From positions 58,523-122,522 of the forward strand of contig JACPSL010000025.1 of assembly GCA_016193285.1 (NCBI GenBank): a DNA stretch of 64,000 nucleotides, given 5' to 3'. The first letter of the stretch is position 1. Every line of letters starts with the position of its first letter. This DNA is from Candidatus Melainabacteria bacterium (lineage in GTDB: Bacteria; Cyanobacteriota; Vampirovibrionia; 2-02-FULL-35-15). Position numbers and translations under genes: made by a program. Below, piece by piece: positions 1-63,048 of this stretch. The notes below the pieces were generated by a model. That model had not been told where the DNA came from and searched no databases. It was given only the letters and a program-made list of their open reading frames with translations.

Positions 1-1142
1 TAAAAGCAACTAGTGAAATTAAAACAAAACCAACTCAACATGGTGTTGAAATTTTAAGAGGAAAAGGTGTTCAACCAGACATTTTAGTTTGTAGGACTGA
101 AAAAACAATTCCAAAAGCTATTAAAGAAAAGTTATCACTTTACACAGATGTTCCAATTGAATCTGTAATTGAGTGCAAGGATCAAAAATCAATATACGAG
201 GTTCCTCTTGCTCTTGAAAAAGAAGGCTTAGCTGAAAGAATCCTAGATAAACTTTGCCTTGTAAGTAGTCCTCCTGATTTAAACAGCTGGCAAGAACTTG
301 TAAATAAGCTTAAAAAGCCAGAAGGAGTTAATGGGAAAAAATTAATTAAAATTGCAATTGTTGGAAAATATGTAAGATTATCAGATTCATATATTAGTGT
401 TGTAGAAGCTATTAATCATGCTAGTGCACATGTAGGTATAGAAACTGAAATAAGATGGGTTTTGTCAGATGATTTGGATAACACTACAGATCTAAAAGAT
501 TTGTTTAGTGATATTGAAGGAGTTATTGTGCCAGGAGGATTTGGAGACAGAGGTATTGAAGGAAAAATAAATGCAATTAAATATGCAAGAGAAAATAAAT
601 TACCTTATTTAGGACTTTGTTTAGGAATGCAATGTGCTGTAATCGAGTTTGCAAGAAATGTATGTGGTTTAACAGGAGCAAATAGCACTGAGTTTGCACC
701 AGATACTTTACATCCAGTAATAGATTTAATGCCTGATCAAGAAAGTATAACTCAAAAAGGTGGAACAATGAGGCTAGGAAAGTATCCTTGCGTTTTATTA
801 CCAGGTTCAAAATCTAAAACTGTATACAGTGAGGATAATGAAATAATTTATGAAAGGCACAGACACAGGTACGAACTAAATAATTTTTATCGTGAAAGGC
901 TTAATTTAGGAGGAATGACATTTGCAGGTATTTCTCCTGACAATACTTTAGTTGAACTAATCGAATTAAAAAACCACCCATGGTTTGTAGGTAGTCAATT
1001 TCATCCAGAGTTTAAATCTCGTCCTGAAAAACCACATCCATTATTCTTAGGATTTATAAAAACAATTTTAGGATTGCCACTGGAAAAAGCAGTCAGCAAT
1101 CAGCAATCAGCAATTAGCTCTCAGCAGTCAGCTAAGAGCTGA
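1..1142 (+). CDS. pyrG: CTP synthase, C-terminal glutamine amidotransferase portion (5' end lies outside the window)
   Basis: The frame is open from the window edge and continuous with ORF 462..1142. GATase type-1 motifs (GLCLGMQ, HPEF) are present. The upstream translation reads KTKPTQH...CRTE, typical of CTP synthase. Confidence 0.9.
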   Translation, partial: KATSEIKTKPTQHGVEILRGKGVQPDILVCRTEKTIPKAIKEKLSLYTDVPIESVIECKDQKSIYEVPLALEKEGLAERILDKLCLVSSPPDLNSWQELVNKLKKPEGVNGKKLIKIAIVGKYVRLSDSYISVVEAINHASAHVGIETEIRWVLSDDLDNTTDLKDLFSDIEGVIVPGGFGDRGIEGKINAIKYARENKLPYLGLCLGMQCAVIEFARNVCGLTGANSTEFAPDTLHPVIDLMPDQESITQKGGTMRLGKYPCVLLPGSKSKTVYSEDNEIIYERHRHRYELNNFYRERLNLGGMTFAGISPDNTLVELIELKNHPWFVGSQFHPEFKSRPEKPHPLFLGFIKTILGLPLEKAVSNQQSAISSQQSAKS

Positions 1143-1161
1143 GGATTGTTTTGAGATAATC

Positions 1162-1455
1162 TTATTCTCTTAATAGATTTTCTATTGTCAGTGCTATTGC
1201 TTGAAACTTACTTACATATCTTGAAAGCCCATCACTTATTGTTTCTTTATCTTCTTCAGATGGATCAATATTTTTAAGTTTTATTTCATATAGTTCAAGC
1301 AAGTGTCTGTCAGTATCTAGTTCAACCTGATATCGATACAATACCATCAAAATTTCTTTGCTAATGTTTTGATTTTTAACTTCATTTTCAAGTAAATTCC
1401 AGAGGTAATTCCAACCTGCTTTTGCACGTTCTAATCTCACTTTTAAATCATTCAA
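1162..1455 (-). CDS. hypothetical protein (may be the 3' part of a single gene together with 1448..1660)
   Basis: The ORF fills an intergenic space and is coiled-coil-like. It overlaps the next ORF by 8 nt in another frame, so a frameshift or two small genes are both possible. Confidence 0.3.
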   Translation of the reverse strand: MNDLKVRLERAKAGWNYLWNLLENEVKNQNISKEILMVLYRYQVELDTDRHLLELYEIKLKNIDPSEEDKETISDGLSRYVSKFQAIALTIENLLRE

Positions 1456-1667: not shown

Positions 1668-2273
1668 TTATATAATCCCTTTTGTAGATCTTGATCCTTT
1701 AATTCTTAAATCAATTTGTTTTGCCTGGTCAAATGCAATTGCAAAAGCCTTAAAGGCTGCTTCAATAATGTGATGTGAATTAGCTCCAGCAATTTGTCTA
1801 AGGTGCAGTGTAAATGGTGCATTAAATGCTAATGCTTTCCAAAACTCAAGATTTAATTCAAGTTCAAAATCATTTATTTTTTCTTTATTAAACTTTAAAT
1901 CATAATAAATAAACGGTCTTGTACAAAGATCTAAAACACATTCAATACATGCTTCATCTAAAGGCACTTTAGTATTTGCATAACGAACTATTCCTTGTCT
2001 ATCATCTAATGCTTCTTTTATAGCCATTCCTAAAACAATACCTACATCTTCTACCGTATGATGTGCATCTATTTCTAAATCTCCACTTGCACTTAAGTCA
2101 AGATCAATAAAGCTATGTTTTTTAAACTGATTTAACATATGATCAAAGAAAGGTATTCCTGTAGCAATTACACCGCTACCATTACCATCAATGTTTAATT
2201 TACAACTTATACTTGTTTCATTTGTTTTGCGTTCTATTTTTGATGTTCTTTTGTTTGTAATTTTTTCTTGCAT
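1668..2273 (-). CDS. hisB: imidazoleglycerol-phosphate dehydratase
   Basis: IGPD signature regions (GIPFFDHML, DAHHTVEDVGI, HHIIEAAFKA) in a 201-aa protein. Confidence 0.9.
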   Translation of the reverse strand: MQEKITNKRTSKIERKTNETSISCKLNIDGNGSGVIATGIPFFDHMLNQFKKHSFIDLDLSASGDLEIDAHHTVEDVGIVLGMAIKEALDDRQGIVRYANTKVPLDEACIECVLDLCTRPFIYYDLKFNKEKINDFELELNLEFWKALAFNAPFTLHLRQIAGANSHHIIEAAFKAFAIAFDQAKQIDLRIKGSRSTKGII

Positions 2274-3393: not shown

Positions 3394-4315
3394 TCCTCGG
3401 GTCAATTTTCTTATACAAAAAATCAATTACTACATTTAACGTAGTTAAAATAAATGAAAAAACAATTGCAGTTCCTGTAATTAAAAAATAATCCCTGTTA
3501 GTAAATGCAGTAACAAAATATCTTCCTATGCCAGGAATTGCAAAAAGATACTCAACTACAAATGAGCCTGTAATTAAAATTGCAATTATTGGACCTAAAA
3601 TTGTGATTAAAGAAATTAAACAATTTTTAAATGCATGCTTAAAAATAATCTTATGTATTGGAAGTCCTTTTGCTAATGCTGTTTTTATGTATTCTTCTCC
3701 AAATTGTTCAAGCATTTGAGATCTAACTATTCTTGCAATGTAAGCCATTGGCAAAAAAGAAAGTGTGATAACAGGCAAAATCATATGTAGTGGGCTTTCC
3801 CATAAAGCAACAGGTAAAACTTTTAGCTTTAATCCAAATATGTTTATTAAAATTGCTCCTATTAAAAAATTAGGTAAAGAGATTCCAAGAAGAACTAGAA
3901 GTAGCAAGATCACATTGTTCTTGAAATATGCAGACATAACCCCAATAATTATTCCAAGTGGTATTGAAATTACTAGTGCAAGAAAACCTAAAGTAAAAGA
4001 TACAGGCATTGCTGAAAATAAAATCTCACTTACAGATCTGTTTACATATTTTAATGATGGTCCAAGATCACCTTTAAATAAAGAAGAAATATACATAAGG
4101 TATTGGATATAAACAGGTTTATTTAAATTATATTTTGCTTCTAAGTTTGCAATTGTTTCTGGTGGCAAACTTTTATTTCCAACAAATGGACTTCCTGGTA
4201 CAAGATAAAGTAATAAAAATGTAATTGATGCAACTAAAAAAGTTGTTAAAAAGATTTTTGCTATACCAAAGAATAAAGTTCTCACGCAGTCATCCCAATT
4301 ATATATTTTTGCCAA
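3386..4315 (-). CDS. ABC transporter permease, Opp/Dpp (peptide/nickel) family
   Basis: Six predicted TM segments and a permease architecture with an EAA-like loop region, 309 aa. Confidence 0.7.
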   Translation of the reverse strand: MAKIYNWDDCVRTLFFGIAKIFLTTFLVASITFLLLYLVPGSPFVGNKSLPPETIANLEAKYNLNKPVYIQYLMYISSLFKGDLGPSLKYVNRSVSEILFSAMPVSFTLGFLALVISIPLGIIIGVMSAYFKNNVILLLLVLLGISLPNFLIGAILINIFGLKLKVLPVALWESPLHMILPVITLSFLPMAYIARIVRSQMLEQFGEEYIKTALAKGLPIHKIIFKHAFKNCLISLITILGPIIAILITGSFVVEYLFAIPGIGRYFVTAFTNRDYFLITGTAIVFSFILTTLNVVIDFLYKKIDPRIT

Positions 4316-4800
4316 TTTGGAAAAACAGATACTGCAAGTCTTTTTGCTTCAAAATACAAATGGCCATATGGAGTTCTTGGATGTTTTAAAAGATGCATAC
4401 CAACTTCTTTTGGCGTGCGATCTCCTTTTTTTACATTACACTTTTGACAAGAAGCCACAACATTTTCCCAAGAATCATTGCCACCTCGGCTTCTAGGAAT
4501 TACATGATCTATTGTTAAGTCACTTGTTTTGGCTCCACAGTATTGACAAGAGAATTGATCTCTGTACATTAAATTTTTTCGTGTTAACGGGATTTCTTTA
4601 TGTGGCACACTTATGTACTTTCTTAGCCTTATTACACTAGGAATGTGAAAGTTAGGATATATTACTTTCCCATTATGTTCTATTTGTTCAGCTTTCCCTT
4701 TGAAAATTAAAATTACTGCTCTTTTCCAATTACAAATATTCAATGGTTCGTATGATGCATTTAAAACTAAAACTCTACTTTTAGAATTAGAATCACTCAT
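4282..4800 (-). CDS. HNH endonuclease family protein
   Basis: HNH motif CQYCG...DHVIPRSRGGNDSWENVVASCQKCN. It overlaps the permease 3' end by 34 nt. Confidence 0.8.
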   Translation of the reverse strand: MSDSNSKSRVLVLNASYEPLNICNWKRAVILIFKGKAEQIEHNGKVIYPNFHIPSVIRLRKYISVPHKEIPLTRKNLMYRDQFSCQYCGAKTSDLTIDHVIPRSRGGNDSWENVVASCQKCNVKKGDRTPKEVGMHLLKHPRTPYGHLYFEAKRLAVSVFPNWQKYIIGMTA

Positions 4801-10930: not shown

Positions 10931-12028
10931 ATGACAGATAAAATGGCAGAATTCGAGAGGCTTTTAAAAGAAGGGAGTTATGAATTTAAGGTTCAACAAG
11001 GAGATATAGTAAAAGGAAAAATTATTTTTTTAGAAAAGGACGGAGCTTTAGTTGATATTGGTGGTAAGACAGAAGCATTTTTACCATATAAAGAGTTAAC
11101 TAATAAAATTAGAAGAGTAAAAATTGAAGAACTAGTTAAAGTTGGAGAAGAACATGATTTTTATGTTCTTAGAGATGATGAGACAGAAGAAGAAAAAGTT
11201 ATTTTATCTTTAAAAAAAGTTAATCAAGCTCAAGGTTGGAATAAATTAGAAGAAGCAAAAAGAGCAAATGAAATTCTTTCAGGTACAATTGCTTCCTTTG
11301 TAAAAGGAGGAGCAATTGTTGAGTTGTTTGGAATTAAGGGTTTTATTCCAAACAGTCAATTGCGGATAAAAAATTCCCAACAAGAAAGTTTACTTGGAAG
11401 CAACATTAATGTAAAAGTATTGGAACTTGATTTTAAGAAAAATAAATTAATTTTTTCACAAAAATTAGCTATTCAAGATGAGAAAGCAGATTTAATGGAA
11501 AAAACAATTCAAAATCTTGAAGTAGGTCAGATTATAAGCGGCGAGGTTGTAAGAGTTACAGATTTTGGTGCTTTTATTGATTTGGGTGGTATTGATGGAC
11601 TGCTCCCGATTTCTGAATTTTCTTGGCAAAGGGTACATAATCCTCAAGATATTTTAAAAGTTGGTCAAGAAGTACAATTAAAAGTTTTAAAAATTGATAG
11701 AGATGTTAGTGGCAGAGTAAAAATCAGTCTTAGCTTAAAAAGAATGCAAAGCGATCCATGGAATGAATTAAGAGGAAAGATAAATGACAATGAAATTATT
11801 GAAGGAACTGTAAGTAAAGTTGCCAGCTTTGGAGTTTTTATTGAAGTTCATCCTGGTGTTGAAGGACTAGTACCACGCTCAGAAATAACAAATGAATCAG
11901 AATCCCCTAAAACAGATGATTATTTAAAAGTTGGTGACACGGTAAAAGTATTAGTTAAACGTTTTGCACCAAACGAACATAGACTTAGTCTTAGTATAAA
12001 AGATGCAAAAGATGCAAATTATCAGTGA
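10931..12028 (+). CDS. rpsA: 30S ribosomal protein S1 (short form)
   Basis: Repeated S1 RNA-binding domains (GxV/I..G.V..v.dfGaFv); the short ~365-aa form lacks the long C-terminus. Confidence 0.85.
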   Translation: MTDKMAEFERLLKEGSYEFKVQQGDIVKGKIIFLEKDGALVDIGGKTEAFLPYKELTNKIRRVKIEELVKVGEEHDFYVLRDDETEEEKVILSLKKVNQAQGWNKLEEAKRANEILSGTIASFVKGGAIVELFGIKGFIPNSQLRIKNSQQESLLGSNINVKVLELDFKKNKLIFSQKLAIQDEKADLMEKTIQNLEVGQIISGEVVRVTDFGAFIDLGGIDGLLPISEFSWQRVHNPQDILKVGQEVQLKVLKIDRDVSGRVKISLSLKRMQSDPWNELRGKINDNEIIEGTVSKVASFGVFIEVHPGVEGLVPRSEITNESESPKTDDYLKVGDTVKVLVKRFAPNEHRLSLSIKDAKDANYQ

Positions 12029-14193: not shown

Positions 14194-14952
14194 ATGGAAC
14201 TTACAAATGAAGAATTAAAAAGATATTCAAGGCAAATAGTACTACCTGAAATAAGCATCCAAGGTCAGCTTGCTTTACAAAAAAGTAAAGTGTTAGTAGC
14301 AGGTGCAGGAGGCTTAGGTTCTAGTGCACTGCTGTACCTTGCTAGTAGTGGCATTGGTACAATTGGTGTAATTGATTACGATAACGTAGATTTATCAAAT
14401 TTACACAGACAAGTTATTCACTACACAGATGATCTAAATAAGTCTAAGGTAATTTCAGCTAAAGAAAAAATAAATAAATTAAATCCTAATGTAAAAGTTG
14501 TTACATTTAATGAAAAATTAAGTCAAACAAATATAAAAAACATTTTAAATGATTTTGAGATTGTTATTGACGGGCTTGATAATTTTAATGATAAGTTTTT
14601 ACTAAATGATAGTTGTGTTTTATTAAATAAGAAATTAATTCATGCTGGAGTAATTGGTTTTGAAGGACAAATACTAACAATAATTCCTAAAAAGTCTGCA
14701 TGTCTTAGATGTTTTTTCCCAGATAAAATACCAGACAATTTAAGACAAAGTTGTAAAGAAATTGGTGTTTTAAGTACTTGTGTTGGTGTGTTAAGTATCA
14801 TTCAGGCAAATGAAGCAATTAAACTAATTTTAGGTATCGGAAAACCACTTACAAACAAGGTTTTAAAGTTTAATGCTTTAGATGGAACGTTTTATGAATT
14901 TAAAGTACAAGATATTAACAAAAGTTGTCCTGTTTGCAACCTAGCGACCTAA
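14194..14952 (+). CDS. moeB: ThiF/MoeB-family E1-like adenylyltransferase
   Basis: Nucleotide-binding GAGGLGS motif and C-terminal CxxC pairs (CLRC...CPVC). Confidence 0.8.
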   Translation: MELTNEELKRYSRQIVLPEISIQGQLALQKSKVLVAGAGGLGSSALLYLASSGIGTIGVIDYDNVDLSNLHRQVIHYTDDLNKSKVISAKEKINKLNPNVKVVTFNEKLSQTNIKNILNDFEIVIDGLDNFNDKFLLNDSCVLLNKKLIHAGVIGFEGQILTIIPKKSACLRCFFPDKIPDNLRQSCKEIGVLSTCVGVLSIIQANEAIKLILGIGKPLTNKVLKFNALDGTFYEFKVQDINKSCPVCNLAT

Positions 14953-15741: not shown

Positions 15742-17109
15742 GAAAAAGATTCAATGGGCGTTTTTCAGTTACCAGATGAAGCATATTATGGTGTTCAAAC
15801 AGCAAGAGCTCTAGATAATTTCCCAATCTCAGGAATTAAAGCAGATTTAGATTTTATTTACTCAAGTATATTTATAAAAAAAGCAGCAGCAAAAGTAAAT
15901 GCTGAATTAGGCAAGATAGATAAAAAGATTTCTCTTGCTATGATTAAAGCTTGTGATGAGGTGTTAGAAGGAAAATTACTTGAAAACTTTGTTGTTGATA
16001 TTTATCAAGCTGGTGCTGGAACTTCACACAATATGAATACAAATGAAGTCTTAGCAAATCGTGCAATTGAACTATTGGGTGGTAAAAAAGGTGATTATAA
16101 AATCGTTAGTCCAAATGATCATGTTAATTGTGCCCAATCTACAAATGACTTTTTCCCAACAGCAATGAGATTAGCAGCTTTAATTAAGTCAAAAGAATTA
16201 TTAAAAGTATTAGATGAATGTTCAAAAGAGTTAGCACAAAAAGGGACTGAGTTTTTTGGTGTTATAAAAGCTGGAAGAACGCATCTTCAGGATGCAGTAC
16301 CAGTTAGATTAGGAAGAGAGTTTCAGGTTTATTCAAGAGTTTTTCATGATCATAAAATTAGATTAGAAAATGCATTATCTGAGTTGAAAATTTTAGGAAT
16401 AGGTGGAACAGCAGCAGGCACAGGTTTAAATGCTCATCCTGAATATCAGTCTAGAATTGTATCTGAACTTAGCAAGCTTAGTAATTTTGAACTCCAAGGT
16501 ACACAAGACTTAATGCTTTCAATGCAAAGCATGGCACCATTTGTTTTAGTCTCATGTACCTTGAAAAATTTTGCATTAGATCTTACAAAGATTTGTAATG
16601 ATTTACGCTTAATGGATTCAGGACCAACAACAGGACTTTCAGAAATAAAACTTCCTCCTGTACAACCAGGTTCATCAATAATGCCCGGGAAAGTAAATCC
16701 TTCAATGATTGAAATGTTAAATCAGGTTTGTTTTCAGGTTATTGGTTGTTCATGTGCTATTGAGTACTCATCCCAGGCTGGCCAATTTGAATTAAATGTA
16801 ATGATGCCAGTAATAAATTTTAATTTACTTCACAGTATAAAAGTTTTAACTAATGCTTTAAAGATATGGAATGAAAAGTGTGTTAAAGGAATTAAGGCAA
16901 ATGTAGACAGGTGTAGAAAATATGCTGAAGGCAGTGTATCAAATGCTACTGCTTTAAATCCTTTAATTGGTTACTTGCAAACAGCAGAAATAGTAAAAGA
17001 AGCAGTCTCAACCGGCAAGCCTATTAAAGACATTTGTCTTGAAAAAAAGCTCTTAGAAAAAAATAAATTAGACGAGGTGTTAAATCTTGAAAAGCAAGTA
17101 GGCTCTTGA
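15733..17109 (+). CDS. fumC: class II fumarate hydratase / aspartase-family lyase
   Basis: Fumarate-lyase signature GSSIMPGKVNP; N-terminal EKDSMG. Confidence 0.8.
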   Translation: MRQEKDSMGVFQLPDEAYYGVQTARALDNFPISGIKADLDFIYSSIFIKKAAAKVNAELGKIDKKISLAMIKACDEVLEGKLLENFVVDIYQAGAGTSHNMNTNEVLANRAIELLGGKKGDYKIVSPNDHVNCAQSTNDFFPTAMRLAALIKSKELLKVLDECSKELAQKGTEFFGVIKAGRTHLQDAVPVRLGREFQVYSRVFHDHKIRLENALSELKILGIGGTAAGTGLNAHPEYQSRIVSELSKLSNFELQGTQDLMLSMQSMAPFVLVSCTLKNFALDLTKICNDLRLMDSGPTTGLSEIKLPPVQPGSSIMPGKVNPSMIEMLNQVCFQVIGCSCAIEYSSQAGQFELNVMMPVINFNLLHSIKVLTNALKIWNEKCVKGIKANVDRCRKYAEGSVSNATALNPLIGYLQTAEIVKEAVSTGKPIKDICLEKKLLEKNKLDEVLNLEKQVGS

Positions 17110-21500: not shown

Positions 21501-21793
21501 AAAATAATATTTTAGTTACTGAAGTTAAAAAAGTTTATGAAGGCAGACCAAATATTTTAGATCATATTAAAAATAAAGAAATCCAGTTAATCATAAACAC
21601 TCCAATTGGCAGGGAAGCCAGAGTTGATGATACATACATTAGAAAAGCAGCAATTCAATATTCAATTCCAGTAGTAACTACAGTTAGAGGAGCAAGAGCA
21701 ACTGTAAAGGCAATTCAATCTTTAAAAAATAATGTTGTTGATGTAAAACCTTTGCAGGAGTATTATAGGACATCACCTGTTGTTCGCTCGTAG
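18563..21793 (+). CDS. carB: carbamoyl-phosphate synthase large subunit
   Basis: 1076 aa with duplicated ATP-grasp halves, an oligomerisation domain and an MGS-like domain. Confidence 0.95.
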
Positions 21794-22648
21794 AGACGCA
21801 CGGCCGTGCGTCTCTATTATCAATGCATTTTTCATAATAATTATTGGTGCAACATCTTTCCCAAGCCAGATATTTAATGATTCTGCACCCTGATTAACAA
21901 GCATTTCAACTCCATTTAATGTTTTTAAATCAAGAGATTTTGCATATTGTAATAATTTTGTCTTTGGTGGGTTGTAAATAATATCATAGACAAATGCATC
22001 GCTAGGTAAATATTGTAAATCTTTTTTTGTGACCAAACACTGATCAATATTTGGGTACATGCCAACTGGAGTAGTGTTTACAAGCATAAATGTATTTGAA
22101 AGATTAATATTTGATACTAAATCAACTTGGATTTTTGTGCTTTTGTTTTTTGATTCTAGAAAATTTTTAAATCTTTCTAACTTATCTTTATTCCTTCCAT
22201 AAATATTAATTTGTGAAACATTATTTAAAAGAAGTGCCATTGCACATGCATGAGCTGCCCCACCGCATCCAAGGATTGCAACATTTTTACCAGCTATATT
22301 TTTTCTAATGCTTATGGGCATTGCATCCCAAAAACCACTTGCATCAGTATTATCACCAATAGTTTTTCCGTCATCATTAAAAGTTACAGTGTTTACTGCT
22401 CCTATTTCTTTAGCTCTGTCTGTTAATTCATCAAGGAGTGGGATAATATTTATTTTATGAGGGATAGTAACATTTACTCCTCTTACTTTTTCTTTTTTTA
22501 ATTCCTTTAAAAGATTTTCTAACTCTTCAGGCTTTACTTCATACACTTTATATTCTCCATTTATATTTAAATGTTGAAAAGCAGCATCATATATTATTGT
22601 TGATAATGAAGGAGTATTAGAAAATTTTATTATTCCTAATTTTAACAT
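21773..22648 (-). CDS. aroE: shikimate dehydrogenase
   Basis: NADP-binding GCGGAAHA motif and N-terminal shikimate-binding region; 291 aa. The C-terminal 8 codons read through the palindrome. Confidence 0.8.
21795..21818. terminator. perfect GC-rich palindrome (AGAGACGCAC-GGCC-GTGCGTCTCT) at the convergent carB/aroE 3' ends
   Basis: Seen directly: a 10-bp stem with a GGCC loop. It lies inside the overlap of the two convergent reading frames and has no strong U-tract. Confidence 0.45.
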
Positions 22649-36933: not shown

Positions 36934-36986
36934 GACTTTCCCTCCAAATATTTATACATTTATAGAAAGGAAAATATTAATTAAAA

Positions 36987-37028
36987 TTGACAGCTAAAAA
37001 AATATTAAACTTTGTAACTTGCTGTCAA
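36987..37028. promoter_or_regulatory. inverted repeat TTGACAGC-N26-GCTGTCAA in the divergent intergenic region
   Basis: Seen directly, ~55-95 nt upstream of the minus-strand operon start. Both arms are TTGACA -35-like hexamers facing outward. Confidence 0.35.
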
Positions 37029-37320
37029 TATTCTGTTTGCACTTACTTTGTAGTATCTGAGTAAGTAGAACCTCAAGTTCTATTTATTCTTAATACAGTT
37101 CTTACTTTGAATCTTAGTAGTTTTCTATTAAGGTCTTGAAGTAAACTTATTATTAAATCAAATATTTAAGCATAATATTTCTTTAGCTTAATAAAGCTAA
37201 ATGCAATTATAGATTGGTTTTGATAAGCTTATATGTTTAAGTATTTGATCTAAGGTTACTAGTTAATTAAGGTTAAGAAGTGATTAAGTAAAATTAAGTA
37301 AGAAGTAAAATAACAAAACA

Positions 37321-39096: not shown

Positions 39097-39669
39097 TTAC
39101 ACTTCTAATTTACGAGTAATATGGAAATATGAATTTTCAATTTGGGTTATCATTTCATTAAGTGTTTTATTGTCAAACTTTAAATCATTTAGTTTAATAA
39201 TCCCTTTAAATATTCCTATTTTATTTAAGTCAATTCCTTTTTCAATAATTTTTTGGGTGGGTATATTATCAGAGATAAAAAAGGAAAATTTATCATATTC
39301 AATATATAAAGGATTAATTTTTTCAAGAATGTTTTCAATGAACAAGATTATAGGAAAGTTATTACTTATACATGCATAAGATTGTGCTTTAGAACCAACT
39401 GAAAAAGCAATGTTAATTTTTCTGTCAGTAAGATACCTGTTTAAAAATACAGATCTGCAAATCGTTGAAAACTCTTCAAATAATCCAAATATTGATATGA
39501 TCCATCCAATAATTTTTGCCTCTAATTTATTTTCTTCCAGAACTTTTTTTATTTCGCTCGTGTTTTGAGCAGTAATAGTTACATCATGACCTCTTGACTT
39601 TAGTTCACTACTTAGTGCCTTTATAAAAGGAATGTGTTTAGGGTTATCAATGTCAAGCCAGATGTGCAT
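39097..39669 (-). CDS. DUF354-like protein fragment (N-terminal ~190 aa of a ~340-aa family; likely truncated)
   Basis: N-terminus MHIWLDIDNPKHIPFIKAL...LKSRGHDVTITA matches the conserved DUF354 start (MKIWIDI.N.PHV.F). A family B promoter/stub repeat sits in front of it. Confidence 0.4.
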   Translation of the reverse strand: MHIWLDIDNPKHIPFIKALSSELKSRGHDVTITAQNTSEIKKVLEENKLEAKIIGWIISIFGLFEEFSTICRSVFLNRYLTDRKINIAFSVGSKAQSYACISNNFPIILFIENILEKINPLYIEYDKFSFFISDNIPTQKIIEKGIDLNKIGIFKGIIKLNDLKFDNKTLNEMITQIENSYFHITRKLEV

Positions 39670-39727
39670 TTTTTACTTTATATTGTTTTTTTTTCATGAC
39701 TTTGACTTTATTATACCCAGTTTTTGC
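39670..39727. repeat. island repeat family B, copy 1 (promoter plus MKKKQYKVK antitoxin stub)
   Basis: The minus strand reads CTGGGTATAAT-AAAGTCAAAGTC-ATGAAAAAAAAACAATATAAAGTAAAA. The stub runs out of frame into the DUF354 ORF. Confidence 0.65.
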
Positions 39728-40015: not shown

Positions 40016-40501
40016 TTATTTTCCCAAGAATTGTCTTGGTGAAACTAATTCTATTAATGCATAACCTTCTCGTAGATTAATTATGTGTACTCCTTTGACA
40101 ACCTTTGCTTTGACTATATGCTTAAAGTTCCATGAAACAAGAAAGTCGCATTTGATTAATGATGCTATTGCAATATGCATAGCATCATCTCTATATTTAG
40201 CTGGTATTAATTTTTCACTAATGTAGGTATTTGCTAAGTTAAGTGTTTCTTCTTTATCAGGTTGAATAACTTCTGGGCTAAATGAATCAATTAATCTTGC
40301 AAGTTCATTTTTTCTTTTAGCACTTGCCCTATTCATCTCATCTTCTACAAGGTCTGAGATTAGTACTGTATAATTACTTCTCTTGTTTCTAAGCATCTTA
40401 AAAAAATCCCATGTTACTAAACAATCTGCTCTTTCTGTTTCGAGAGCAAAATTCCAGACTGAAGTATCAATATAAAGTTTTAGTGGTTTCCCCATTTTCA
40501 A
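40016..40501 (-). CDS. PIN-domain protein (VapC-like toxin), paralog 3
   Basis: LKLYIDTSVWN...DAMHIAIASL...SWNFKHIV...IELVSPRQF. Confidence 0.65.
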   Translation of the reverse strand: MKMGKPLKLYIDTSVWNFALETERADCLVTWDFFKMLRNKRSNYTVLISDLVEDEMNRASAKRKNELARLIDSFSPEVIQPDKEETLNLANTYISEKLIPAKYRDDAMHIAIASLIKCDFLVSWNFKHIVKAKVVKGVHIINLREGYALIELVSPRQFLGK

Positions 40502-40545
40502 TTTTTACTTTATATTGCTTTTTTTTCATGACCTTGACTTTGCTA
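40494..40545. repeat. island repeat family B, copy 2 (promoter plus 13-codon MKKKQYKVKIENG stub directly before the PIN start)
   Basis: Seen directly. Confidence 0.65.
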
Positions 40546-40661
40546 TCCTAAAGTATCTTAATTATATCCTCGGGGTAGATTTAAGTACAGAAGCAGGCTT
40601 TAACTCAAAGCCCATATTTACTTGCAAGAAATGTTTATCCATGGTCAATATTTCCTTAATT

Positions 40662-40934
40662 TTAAATTCTTGCATAACGACCATTGAAGACAAATCTACA
40701 AAAGAAATCCTTATAAACTACAGAATCTATTAATTCAGGGGTTAGTTCCTTATAATCTACTTCTGCACTTATACACCCTATTAATTCTTTAAGTAAGGCT
40801 TTATCTTCAGGATCCTCAAAATTTTCCTCTTCAAGAAAAATTATTATTCCTTCCTTGAAATTACTTAGATCTAAAGGTTCTAAAGGTTTTATTTCTCCAT
40901 TTTCAATTTTTACTTTATACTGTTTTTTTTTCAT
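40662..40934 (-). CDS. DUF104-type (KVKIENGEIKPLEPLDL) antitoxin-family protein
   Basis: The N-terminal consensus is typical of small antitoxins paired with PIN toxins. Confidence 0.55.
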   Translation of the reverse strand: MKKKQYKVKIENGEIKPLEPLDLSNFKEGIIIFLEEENFEDPEDKALLKELIGCISAEVDYKELTPELIDSVVYKDFFCRFVFNGRYARI

Positions 40935-40975
40935 GACTTTGATTTTATTATACCCAGTTTTTGCTTATACTTGGT
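40894..40975. repeat. island repeat family B, copy 3 (the intact promoter and 5' end of the DUF104 antitoxin gene)
   Basis: Seen directly. Confidence 0.65.
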
Positions 40976-40981
40976 TTACAA

Positions 40982-41114
40982 GGGTGACTTCCGTGAGAAA
41001 ATGATCAGTACTGTCTAAGGTGCAGTAGCAACTTAAAGGATTTAACTGGTTTATCCAGTAAATCCGATCAAGCAAGGAAGAGCGACAAACGGAAGCTTCA
41101 GCTTGTCTGAAGCT
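40982..41114 (+). ncRNA. GC-rich structured element / 5' leader ending in a perfect hairpin GCTTCAG-CTTGT-CTGAAGC 7 nt before the ATG
   Basis: GC content is well above the flanking DNA. A terminal helix CTTCCGT/ACGGAAG encloses ~100 nt. The hairpin spans 41096..41114. The minus-strand ORF across it (40965..41189) looks non-coding. Confidence 0.3.
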
Positions 41115-41121
41115 ATAAAAA

Positions 41122-41808
41122 ATGAAAGCAATTATTTTAGCTGGTGGAAAAGGTGAAAGGCTTAGTCCTCTTACAAGTAATTGTCCCAAGGGAATGATAA
41201 AAATAGAAGGTAAACCAATACTTGAATATCAAATTGAATGGTTAAAAAAGTATGGTGTCACAGAAATTATTTTTGCATGTGGGTATCTACATGAAAAAAT
41301 CAAAGAACACTTTAGAGATGGGGACAACTTTGGTATAAAGGTTTTTTATTCTGTTGAAGATGAACCTCTTGGTCGTGGTGGGGCTATTAAAAAAGCTCTC
41401 AGCATTCAGCATTCAGCATTCAGCTCTTTTTTAGTTATGAACGGTGATGTGCTTACTGAGATGAATTTAAGTTTAGCAATCAATGCTCATAACCTTGAAA
41501 AAAAAGATAAAAATATTATTGCTACAATTTGTTTGTTTCCTTATAAAAGTCCATATGGAATTGTAAGAGTAGAAAAAGATGGATTAATAAATAACTTTGA
41601 TGAAAAAGGAGCATTGCCTTATTGGCTAAATGGAGGGATTTATATTTTTGAAGCTGAAATAAAAAAATATTTACCTGACAAGGGCGATCATGAGACAACT
41701 ACTTTTCCAGAATTAGCAAGTAAAAAATTATTATATGGTTATAAATCCATTGATTTTTGGAGAGGAATTGATACTATAAAAGATTTAAACGAATTTTTAG
41801 TTACATGA
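41122..41808 (+). CDS. sugar-phosphate nucleotidyltransferase
   Basis: N-terminal ILAGGKGERLSPLT nucleotide-binding motif; 228 aa. It contains an in-frame CAGCATT x3 repeat. Confidence 0.75.
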   Translation: MKAIILAGGKGERLSPLTSNCPKGMIKIEGKPILEYQIEWLKKYGVTEIIFACGYLHEKIKEHFRDGDNFGIKVFYSVEDEPLGRGGAIKKALSIQHSAFSSFLVMNGDVLTEMNLSLAINAHNLEKKDKNIIATICLFPYKSPYGIVRVEKDGLINNFDEKGALPYWLNGGIYIFEAEIKKYLPDKGDHETTTFPELASKKLLYGYKSIDFWRGIDTIKDLNEFLVT

Positions 41809-61830: not shown

Positions 61831-63048
61831 ATGAACATCTTATTTTTTAATCGTACTTTTAGTTCTAATACTGATGCTACTGGTCAATTTTTACTAGAAC
61901 TTTGTGAAGACTTAGTTAGTTATGGTAACCACGTTACAGTTGTAACTAGTTCATTAAGTCATTTAGATGCTCCTTTAATTAGGTTTTATTTAAAAAAAGA
62001 GAATTATAAATCAATTGAAGTTATTAGAGGATATGGGACTAAACTTCCCAAAAATATATTGCTTTTTCGTCTTATAAATCTTGCTACTTATTTTATTCTT
62101 GCTTTTTTAGGAGGACTATTAGTAAAAAAAAGACCAGATATTATTGTTGCTACAACAGATCCCCCGCTATTAGGTTTATTAGGTATATTTTTTTCTAAGT
62201 TATATAAAGCAAAGTTTGTTTATTCTTGTAAGGACATCTATCCAGAAATAGGGATAATAACTGGTAAGTTAAAAGATCCTTTCTTGAATTTTTTGCTTGA
62301 AAAAGTAAACTTGTTGTCTTTTAAAAGTGCAAACAAAATCGTTTCTCTTGGAGAAGATATGAAAAAAATTCTTATAAAGAAAGGTATAGATGAAGAAAAA
62401 ATTGCTGTAATGCATGACTGGGCAGATACTAAAAATCTTTATCCTGTTTTGCCTGAAAATAATCCTTTTAGACTTAAATATAATTTACAGAATTTCTTTA
62501 CAGTTATGTACTCAGGAAACATTGGTTTAACACAAGCTTTAGAAAAAGTAATTGATGTGGCTGTTTTTTTAAAGGATAAAAATGAAATTAAGTTTATTTT
62601 TATTGGTGATGGTGTTAATAAAGCAAGTCTCCAAAGAAAAGTAAGCAATCTTAAACTTAATAATGTAATTTTTCTATCATATCAGTCTGGAGAAGAGCTT
62701 AAATATTCTTTAAGTGCACCTGACATTCATTTAATTCCATGTCTTAAAGGTTTAACAGGAGTTATTGTTCCAAGTAAAATCTATGGAATTATTTCTTGTG
62801 GTAAGCCATTTATAGCATGGGTAGATGATGAATCAGAAATTAGTAAAATTGCAAAAGAATATAATTGTGGAATTGTTGTTCCACCAGAAGATGTAAATGC
62901 TATGACTTGTGCAATTGAATGGTCGCAAAGACATAAAGAAAGATTATGTGAAATGGGACAAAATGGCAGGGAAACTGCAATTAAATATTTTGACAGAAAG
63001 ATTAGTACTAGTAAGTTTAATGAACTACTTTTAAAACTCCAGGAATAA
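61831..63048 (+). CDS. glycosyltransferase, GT4-like
   Basis: GT-B C-terminal domain pattern. Confidence 0.6.
   Translation: MNILFFNRTFSSNTDATGQFLLELCEDLVSYGNHVTVVTSSLSHLDAPLIRFYLKKENYKSIEVIRGYGTKLPKNILLFRLINLATYFILAFLGGLLVKKRPDIIVATTDPPLLGLLGIFFSKLYKAKFVYSCKDIYPEIGIITGKLKDPFLNFLLEKVNLLSFKSANKIVSLGEDMKKILIKKGIDEEKIAVMHDWADTKNLYPVLPENNPFRLKYNLQNFFTVMYSGNIGLTQALEKVIDVAVFLKDKNEIKFIFIGDGVNKASLQRKVSNLKLNNVIFLSYQSGEELKYSLSAPDIHLIPCLKGLTGVIVPSKIYGIISCGKPFIAWVDDESEISKIAKEYNCGIVVPPEDVNAMTCAIEWSQRHKERLCEMGQNGRETAIKYFDRKISTSKFNELLLKLQE

Follow-up and report, generated by a model that had tools for sequence, protein, structure and literature searches.

The question raised by this locus is what lies between a putative antitoxin gene and a long glycan operon, where a short segment is richer in G+C than its surroundings and contains hairpins that might regulate the genes that follow. 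The window, that is, the whole 64-kb stretch of DNA that was analysed, comes from an uncultured bacterium labelled Candidatus Melainabacteria by NCBI (protein MBI2996186.1, from a MAG). Its MurE, RodA, and FabF genes are those of a bacterium, and an archaeal origin, considered on account of weak AF2212-like, DUF354, and DUF366 matches, was rejected on the strength of these three genes and of the source name. Our reading, held with somewhat more confidence than doubt, is that the segment consists of the promoter of the glycan operon and a 5′ leader whose unusual length is peculiar to this species, the additional length being probably derived from an insertion.

The segment sits in a 187-nt divergent intergenic region (40935−41121). 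The G+C content of this region is 0.38, the highest value among the 21 intergenic regions in the window that measure 60 nt or more (0.14−0.34 for the others), and that of the segment is 0.39−0.41 in 100-nt windows, compared to 0.30 (30.3%) for the whole window. This agrees with the sequence-only reading, which had put the segment above a background of about 30% and whose statements about the sequence are correct to within 1−2 bases. A tRNA/tmRNA scan returned no match. The features of the locus are collected in Table 1.

Table 1. Features in and around the segment, with positions in the window
Feature	Position	Strand	Comment
AF2212-like putative antitoxin gene, 90 aa	40662−40934	−	Weak Pfam match; left flank of the intergenic region
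66-nt direct repeat, copy 3	40899−40964	−	5′ end of the antitoxin gene and TGGGTATAAT promoter; left edge of the segment
74-aa ORF, TTG start, spurious	40965−41189	−	Absent from the gene calls of L001/L002
Box 1, GGTTTACAAG	40973−40982	+	Aligns with GTTTATAAT of the relatives; includes −35-like TTTACA, 40975−40980
CTTCCGT, 5′ arm of the enclosing helix	40988−40994	+	In the spacer between boxes 1 and 2
Box 2, TGAGAAAAT	40994−41002	+	Extended −10 reading; aligns with TGGGAAAAT or TGAGAAAAT of the relatives
Putative 5′ leader of the glycan operon, about 112 nt	41009−41121	+	About 65−95 nt longer than those of the relatives
Central hairpin, GGATTTAaCTGG-TTTAT-CCAGTAAATCC, 11 bp, one bulged A, loop UUUAU	41038−41065	+	Not singled out in the sequence-only reading
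Purine-rich linker, GATCAAGCAAGGAAGAGCGACAAACGGA	41066−41093	+	Predicted to be mostly unpaired; contains the GGAAG likened to SRP RNA
ACGGAAG, 3′ arm of the enclosing helix	41089−41095	+	Extends into the base of the 3′ hairpin
3′ hairpin, AGCTTCAG-CTTGT-CTGAAGCT, 8 bp, −10.4 kcal/mol	41094−41114	+	−28 to −8 from the ATG
A-rich spacer ATAAAAA and ATG of the NTP-transferase	41115−41124	+	Without Shine-Dalgarno sequence
Glycan operon, co-directional ORFs of at least 100 aa	41122−63048	+	First gene NTP-transferase

The operon counts 18 such ORFs, rather than the 20 genes of the earlier estimate. Their products are the NTP-transferase, a GDP-mannose dehydratase, GT4/GT2 glycosyltransferases, methyltransferases, a UDP-glucose dehydrogenase, a Wzx-type flippase, a Wzy-type polymerase, an AsnB-like protein, a carbamoyltransferase, and an epimerase. 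The ATG of the first gene at 41122 is secure, since the alignment of MKAIILAGGKGERL with all homologues begins at residue 1, and the N-terminus MKAIILAGG is conserved among them. The 74-aa ORF on the opposite strand had been suspected to be an artefact, consistent with the present searches, which assign it to no Pfam family and yield one marginal repetitive match (E 2.9e-4) in 1.84 billion representative proteins.

Comparison with relatives and the promoter region

Ten distinct syntenic loci were compared with the window, the DNA of P0008 being taken from a short second contig (L093) and its long contig being used as a gene table. The relatives have a minus-strand DUF354 fragment, in most cases a small plus-strand ORF, and then the NTP-transferase. 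The latter protein has many homologues with 65−72% identity and none between 72% and 100%, and the best homologue of the DUF354 neighbour is 52% identical, from which it follows that no genus-level relative is public. Among the matches listed in a search of genome contigs with the NTP-transferase, there were only distant homologues (at most 48% identity) from other phyla.

The sequence-only reading had posed conservation in relatives beforehand as a test that could refute it. The segment is absent from all ten syntenic relatives, neither blastn nor nhmmer detecting any similarity, and the last 150 nt before the ATG have a GC content of 0.23−0.33 in the relatives versus 0.41 in the window. The only other copies of the segment, in two more assemblies of the same organism (L001 and L002), are 100% identical over 3.9−6.7 kb. 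The segment was not found in plasmids or phages by blastn or in IMG/VR viral contigs with three patterns, and a degenerate pattern of the central hairpin gave a single match in JGI metagenome contigs, a chance match to an unrelated GC-rich contig. It should be kept in mind that the relatives are distant (at most 72% identity in the adjacent protein), and their lack of the segment would be compatible with a function that is confined to the genus.

What the relatives do share with the window is the sequence just upstream. In the MAFFT alignment, positions 40970−41004 of the window align with the relatives' GTTTATAAT-N12/13-TGGGAAAAT, and are followed by about 100 columns that only the window occupies. 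The corresponding motif of the window is box 1, 11 nt, and box 2, and the locus L092 carries the identical 9-mer of box 2. In a motif scan, box 2 lies 22−55 nt from the ATG in 8 of the 10 relatives and 119 nt from it in the window.

Boxes 1 and 2 also have the form of a sigma-70-type promoter, as a match to the consensus (−35 and −10 elements separated by 16−18 nt, with an optional TG). The arrangement TTTACA-16-GAAAAT, preceded by TG and with 9 of 12 consensus matches, is the only promoter-like site in 40300−41500. The same scan does not call a homologous two-box promoter in L003, L092, L094, or L097. Box 1 is a perfect TATAAT in L003, L005, L093, and L094, where box 2 is usually weak, except in L094, where it is good; box 1 is degenerate in L092, L097, L011, and the window, where box 2 is a good extended −10. 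This pattern would correspond to two alternative uses of one promoter region, box 2 presumably serving as the −10 element in the window, and on this basis we infer that transcription starts at about 41009. The assignment is ambiguous, as the TATAAT box 1 of the relatives could itself be a −10 element, which would place the start near 40989. With either start, the extra 65−95 nt, which contain both hairpins, come after the conserved motif and are particular to this lineage.

It is thus proposed that an ancestral promoter region (40973−41002) has been kept, and that between this promoter and the ATG the lineage carries some 65−95 nt of additional, G+C-richer sequence, the two inverted repeats of which would fold in the transcript.

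The small ORF of the relatives brings up a different explanation, namely, that the segment is the decayed remnant of a gene, a pseudogene fragment left by rearrangements of the toxin-antitoxin island. An ORF of 76−87 aa occupies the position of the segment in 7 of the 10 relatives, truncated genes are found nearby (a 20-codon antitoxin stub and the DUF354 fragment), and a GC content of about 0.40 resembles that of the more GC-rich coding stretches. The small ORFs of the relatives find nothing in the segment by tblastn, however, on which ground a pseudogene of the relatives' upstream ORF was rejected. Moreover, there are stops in all three plus-strand frames, the open minus-strand frame has no homologues, and the two near-perfect hairpins would be left unexplained. 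A gene remnant is therefore considered quite improbable.

Hairpins and the fold of the leader

The hairpin GCTTCAG-CTTGT-CTGAAGC, which had drawn attention to the segment, is present at 41095−41113 and extends to the 8 bp of AGCTTCAG/CTGAAGCT when A41094−T41114 is counted. A perfect 7-bp hairpin of any kind occurs in 5.6% of the dinucleotide shuffles of the segment, and one with at least four G−C pairs in 0.5% of them. The 64-kb window holds five distinct hairpins of the latter type (8 entries), versus 1.0 ± 1.0 entries in shuffles. The 3′ hairpin belongs to the minimum free energy structure, and its ensemble probability is just 0.12−0.59, varying with the 5′ end that is assumed, which means that the ensemble of the transcript is diffuse. 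The calculated probability that the AUG is unpaired is 0.29−0.65 across the transcript models, and in the minimum free energy structure the AUG is unpaired.

The central hairpin at 41038−41065, which had not been singled out in the sequence-only reading, has a folding energy of −13.1 kcal/mol (z −4.7, 0 of 200 shuffles) and is stronger than the 3′ hairpin. All three transcript models give it pair probabilities of about 1.0, and according to them it is a stable, autonomous stem-loop. A 7-nt sequence, TGGTTTA, that is common to box 1 and the loop of the central hairpin was judged to be a coincidence. There is no second copy of the hairpins in the 64-kb window (up to three mismatches; blastn and nhmmer). 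The operon of 22 kb is thus preceded by two independent, statistically unusual hairpins, a situation that selection for structure fits as well as a relic does.

The outermost pairing is of another kind. The helix CTTCCGT/ACGGAAG, said to enclose the segment, is confirmed as a perfect complementarity around 94 nt, but it is no more than chance would give, since 20% of shuffles contain a long-range perfect complement of 7 nt, and its 5′ arm falls in the likely promoter spacer. If box 2 is the −10 element, this arm would lie in the spacer of the promoter and would not be transcribed. If the transcript starts near 40989, most of the outer helix could form, with pair probabilities of 0.37−0.56.

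For the segment as a whole, the fold of the plus strand has a z of −2.4, and 4.3% of all 135-nt plus-strand windows equal it after correction for composition. A better fold is obtained for the minus strand, which has a z of −4.0 and ranks within the top 0.6% of windows. This is how a DNA palindrome behaves, and the better minus-strand fold is hence no argument for a strand-specific RNA.

It might indeed be expected if the palindromes are not RNA structures at all and act instead as DNA-level operators, bound by dimeric proteins such as the antitoxin or a local regulator, that control the divergent promoter(s) or form a roadblock. Both are near-perfect, strand-symmetric inverted repeats with 5-bp centres, and they lie in a divergent promoter region adjoining the antitoxin gene. 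We nevertheless find such a role unlikely. The palindromes are separated from the antitoxin promoter by 80−160 bp and lie outside the repeated module, which ends at 40964; they overlap neither −10/−35 region, and they recur neither with the remaining copies of the antitoxin promoter module nor in the rest of the window. In addition, the arm of 11 bp is long for an operator half-site.

The start region and possible regulatory roles

The start region of the NTP-transferase gene allows the proposed regulatory readings to be assessed. As had been noted, there is no Shine-Dalgarno sequence before the ATG at 41122, the core being absent in −21 to −4. This is uninformative, since only 11 of the 59 genes of the window have such a core, while 48 lack it; the literature on Shine-Dalgarno sequences in Melainabacteria yielded nothing useful. 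Several genes of the window are arranged in a leaderless-type manner, with a TATAAT whose end is 7 nt from the ATG. Leaderless transcription of the operon from TATAAA at 41114−41119 was rejected on the basis of the conserved N-terminus and of the spacing, as this element ends 2 nt before the ATG, compared to 7 nt in the leaderless-type genes.

A hairpin that occludes translation, as the sequence-only reading had suggested, is not in line with these data. The stem at −28 to −8 holds neither a Shine-Dalgarno sequence nor the AUG, 7−8 nt separate it from the ATG, and the A-rich spacer and the AUG are left outside, so that it is not a classical occluding hairpin. The region from −20 to +20 has a folding energy of only −2.5 kcal/mol and ranks 19th among the 59 genes, which is ordinary here. 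Translational operator hairpins, RNA thermometers (ROSE, fourU), and the sequestor stems of riboswitches likewise place a stable hairpin near the start codon; the segment differs from them in what the stem contains and in the average openness of the start region.

Nor is there any sign of a terminator. No intrinsic terminator-like site is found on either strand in 40300−41500, and no U-tract follows the hairpin at 41094−41114, which is therefore not an attenuator; the sequence after it is UAUAAAAAA on the plus strand and UUCCGUUUGU on the minus strand. The same observations bear on an independent small RNA, another of the original proposals, which could be encoded on either strand and might be antisense to the start region of the operon. 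The better fold of the minus strand and a GC content above that of the other intergenic regions would fit such an RNA. Its existence is highly improbable, considering that the hairpin is followed by the above sequences and by no terminator, that the minus strand has no promoter-like site in 40300−41500, and that the segment has no Rfam match and is not conserved.

The sequence-only reading had called for an Rfam search. At the gathering score, no family matches anywhere in the window, and a riboswitch-like element or a known RNA family is thus not supported. Even at E ≤ 10, the region 40850−41250 gives only chance matches to a viral pseudoknot (PK-HAV) and to eukaryotic snoRNAs and lncRNAs (10−21 bits, with thresholds of 40−65), and the loci of nine relatives give nothing. 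The SRP, wcaG, manA, JUMPstart, and epsC models have no match at E ≤ 10. The faint resemblance to domain IV of the bacterial SRP RNA (4.5S) that had been pointed out is rejected, and comes down to a purine-rich stretch containing GGAAG; in the segment, this stretch is predicted to be unpaired and outside any hairpin resembling helix 8.

Leader elements of polysaccharide operons are known, namely, JUMPstart/ops with RfaH, the eps-associated RNA of Bacillus, and the LoaP and UpxY leaders, and the wcaG and manA RNA motifs occur in cyanobacteria and phages. With all of these (JUMPstart/ops-RfaH, eps-associated RNA/epsC, LoaP, UpxY, wcaG, and manA) the segment shares a long 5′ leader directly before a long glycan operon. 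It differs from them in having no covariance-model match at E ≤ 10, in not being conserved, and in that no NusG/KOW paralogue was found among the approximately 58 ORFs of the window that were scanned with Pfam or NCBIfam.

We have also considered that the segment could be a regulatory leader RNA, whether as a riboswitch-like sensor peculiar to this lineage, as a leader that binds a protein, or as an element for processive antitermination along the 22-kb operon. The functional analogues would be ops/JUMPstart-RfaH, the Bacillus eps-associated RNA, and the LoaP/UpxY leaders. Its position before a long glycan operon would suit this role, as would its length, far greater than that of the relatives' leaders, and the structure of the −40 to −1 region, the second most structured among the 59 genes; the competition of the 3′ hairpin with alternative pairings, with the probabilities for the hairpin and the AUG given above, would fit it as well. 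We regard this as rather unlikely, though, given that there is no Rfam match of any kind, no conservation in the ten relatives with the same first gene, no NusG/KOW paralogue among the ORFs scanned, and no terminator to read through. The diffuse ensemble, moreover, is typical for AU-rich sequence, and the folding of the plus strand is unexceptional.

A narrower form of the same idea is a genus-specific cis-acting RNA that would aid antitermination or regulator binding across the 22-kb, 18-gene operon, or in which the 3′ hairpin and the start region would form a conformational switch. If such an RNA had been acquired recently, it would be invisible to comparative genomics. We consider it very improbable.

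Of the cis-regulatory leader that was originally proposed, the leader stands: the segment is most likely part of the 5′ leader of the operon, with the two-box motif just upstream of it and partly inside it, whereas its riboswitch-like and occluding attributes do not hold. The lack of an Rfam family together with the absence from ten relatives argues for an ordinary species-specific leader extension and not for a conserved regulatory RNA. If this extension has any effect on expression, it would act as a constitutive structure in the 5′ UTR, with no switching. The 3′ hairpin would leave the A-rich start region open, and could at most dampen or tune modestly an initiation that is independent of a Shine-Dalgarno sequence, or affect the decay of the mRNA.

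Origin of the extra leader and its significance

The surroundings of the segment indicate how the extra sequence could have been acquired. The 66-nt module is present in three copies, at 39662, 40494, and 40899, the third being 92% identical to the first. One copy heads the 20-codon antitoxin stub and another precedes the DUF354 fragment, while the third ends at 40964, exactly at the start of the segment. That the segment is itself part of the repeated antitoxin module was rejected, because the 66-nt repeat ends at this position and the other copies continue differently.

In the relatives, PIN, PemK, and DUF2281 toxin-antitoxin genes are often inserted nearby or at the same place. The same intergenic region contains, in L097, a GC-rich palindromic insertion with nested perfect inverted repeats of 12 and 11 bp and, in L098, imperfect terminal repeats of 46 nt around a GC-rich core of 97 nt. 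The region is evidently a rearrangement hot spot. The toxin-antitoxin genes, the 66-nt repeats, and the palindromic insertions of the relatives make an origin by insertion or rearrangement plausible, and we infer that the extra leader arrived in this way.

The segment can be compared here with REP/BIME, ERIC, the Correia/NEMIS elements of Neisseria, and cyanobacterial MITEs, which are small palindromic elements that insert into intergenic DNA, come to lie in 5′ UTRs, and are defined by being present in multiple copies. It resembles them in its length of about 100 nt, in a G+C content above that of the surrounding intergenic DNA, and in its hairpin-forming inverted repeats, as well as in being present in one lineage, absent from the syntenic relatives, and, under the proposed promoter assignment, co-transcribed in a leader. 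Unlike them, it showed no additional copy, whether in the 64-kb window or in the collections searched, and it has neither terminal inverted repeats nor a target-site duplication; its inverted repeats are limited to those of the internal hairpins and to the 7-nt outer complement, the borders being undefinable at this divergence.

As it stands, the segment is one more example of a 5′ leader that is rich in hairpins, is not conserved, and lies in an intergenic region prone to rearrangement, and as such matters little. It illustrates that GC enrichment and hairpins in an AT-rich genome are not by themselves signs of a functional RNA. To our knowledge, there is almost no experimental genetics in Melainabacteria, and a regulatory function of the leader, if there is one, would make it the first described case in this group of a cis-regulatory RNA acting on the synthesis of surface glycans. 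A more useful lead on the transcription of these operons is probably the two-box motif that the window has in common with its relatives.

Strongly folding stretches and hairpins between convergent genes

Stretches of the window other than the leader of the glycan operon fold far beyond the expectation from their composition, and these 135-nt windows, with z from -4.4 to -4.9, surpass the leader segment itself. One of these lies inside a protein-coding gene. Another is located in a divergent intergenic region and holds an inverted repeat of 22 nt with 86% identity between its arms. Two perfect hairpins were additionally found at the meeting points of convergent genes, where they are likely to act as bidirectional terminators.

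Coordinates of the features discussed (window positions, except for the two insertions, which are numbered within the loci of the relatives)
Feature	Position (strand)	Context
Folding window	11266-11400 (+)	inside four-domain S1 protein gene
Folding window	62716-62850 (+)	
Folding window	16486-16620 (-)	
Folding stretch	37021-37290 (+)	387-nt divergent intergenic region 36934-37320
Folding window	1036-1200 (-)	
Hairpin GAGACGCAC.../...GTGCGTCTC	21793-21814	junction of convergent carB and shikimate dehydrogenase genes
Hairpin AAGCTTCTCAATT/AATTGAGAAGCTT	1595-1626	intergenic region 1143-1667
66-nt repeat, copy 1	39662-39727	precedes DUF354 fragment
66-nt repeat, copy 2	40494-40559	heads 20-codon truncated antitoxin, ahead of PIN-like gene
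66-nt repeat, copy 3	40899-40964	
DUF354 ORF	39097-39669 (-)	
Gene with hexamer before ATG	1668-2273 (-)	
Gene with hexamer before ATG	14194-14952 (+)	
Gene with hexamer before ATG	4282-4800 (-)	
Gene with hexamer before ATG	40662-40934 (-)	AF2212-like antitoxin
Two-box motif	40973-41002	
TCAGCAT repeat	41399-41424	within NTP-transferase ORF
Insertion, L097	1266-1363	two inverted repeats, nested and both perfect: CGTCATTGCGAG/CTCGCAATGACG, GGCAATCTCAT/ATGAGATTGCC
Insertion, L098	519-707	46-nt imperfect terminal inverted repeats flanking 97-nt GC-rich core

Surroundings of the leader in the window and in relatives

The toxin-antitoxin island to the left of the leader contains three copies of a 66-nt direct repeat (76-92% identity), which comprises the first codons of the AF2212-like antitoxin gene (MKKKQYKVK...) together with its TGGGTATAAT promoter. 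These copies are recombination scars within the island. The DUF354 ORF that adjoins the glycan operon encodes about 190 aa and matches only the N-terminal half of the 349-position profile. Because this size is kept in most of the relatives (syntenic loci L008, L011, L092, L096, and L097), the ORF is a short version that has persisted stably, as opposed to a fragment of recent origin.

In two relatives, L097 and L098, the intergenic region corresponding to that of the leader carries GC-rich palindromic insertions, neither of which has a match in Rfam. The architecture of the L098 insertion can be described as MITE-like.

Gene starts and the NTP-transferase gene

A Shine-Dalgarno core precedes only 11 of the 59 genes in the window, and at several genes, of which the table gives four examples, a TATAAT or TAAAAT hexamer ends 7-12 nt before the ATG, the layout of leaderless or near-leaderless genes. 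In the Melainabacteria relatives, a two-box motif upstream of the corresponding glycan-operon genes, GTTTATAAT-N12/13-TG(G/A)G(A/G)(A/G)AAT, is conserved 20-80 nt before the NTP-transferase ATG (loci L003, L005, L008, L011, L092, L093, L094, and L097), and it is also present in the window. Loci with a good match in one box tend to have a poorer one in the other, L094 being an exception, and this pattern suggests either that promoters are used alternatively or that the motif is a conserved site for a regulator.

Within the NTP-transferase ORF, we also observed a perfect heptanucleotide tandem repeat (TCAGCAT, 3.7 copies), the copy number of which is the same in both other assemblies of the source organism. 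It lies in a variable loop that has one additional amino acid compared with eight homologues. Since seven is not divisible by three, adding or removing a single unit would shift the reading frame of this gene, with which the glycan operon opens, and the repeat is therefore a candidate site of slipped-strand phase variation.
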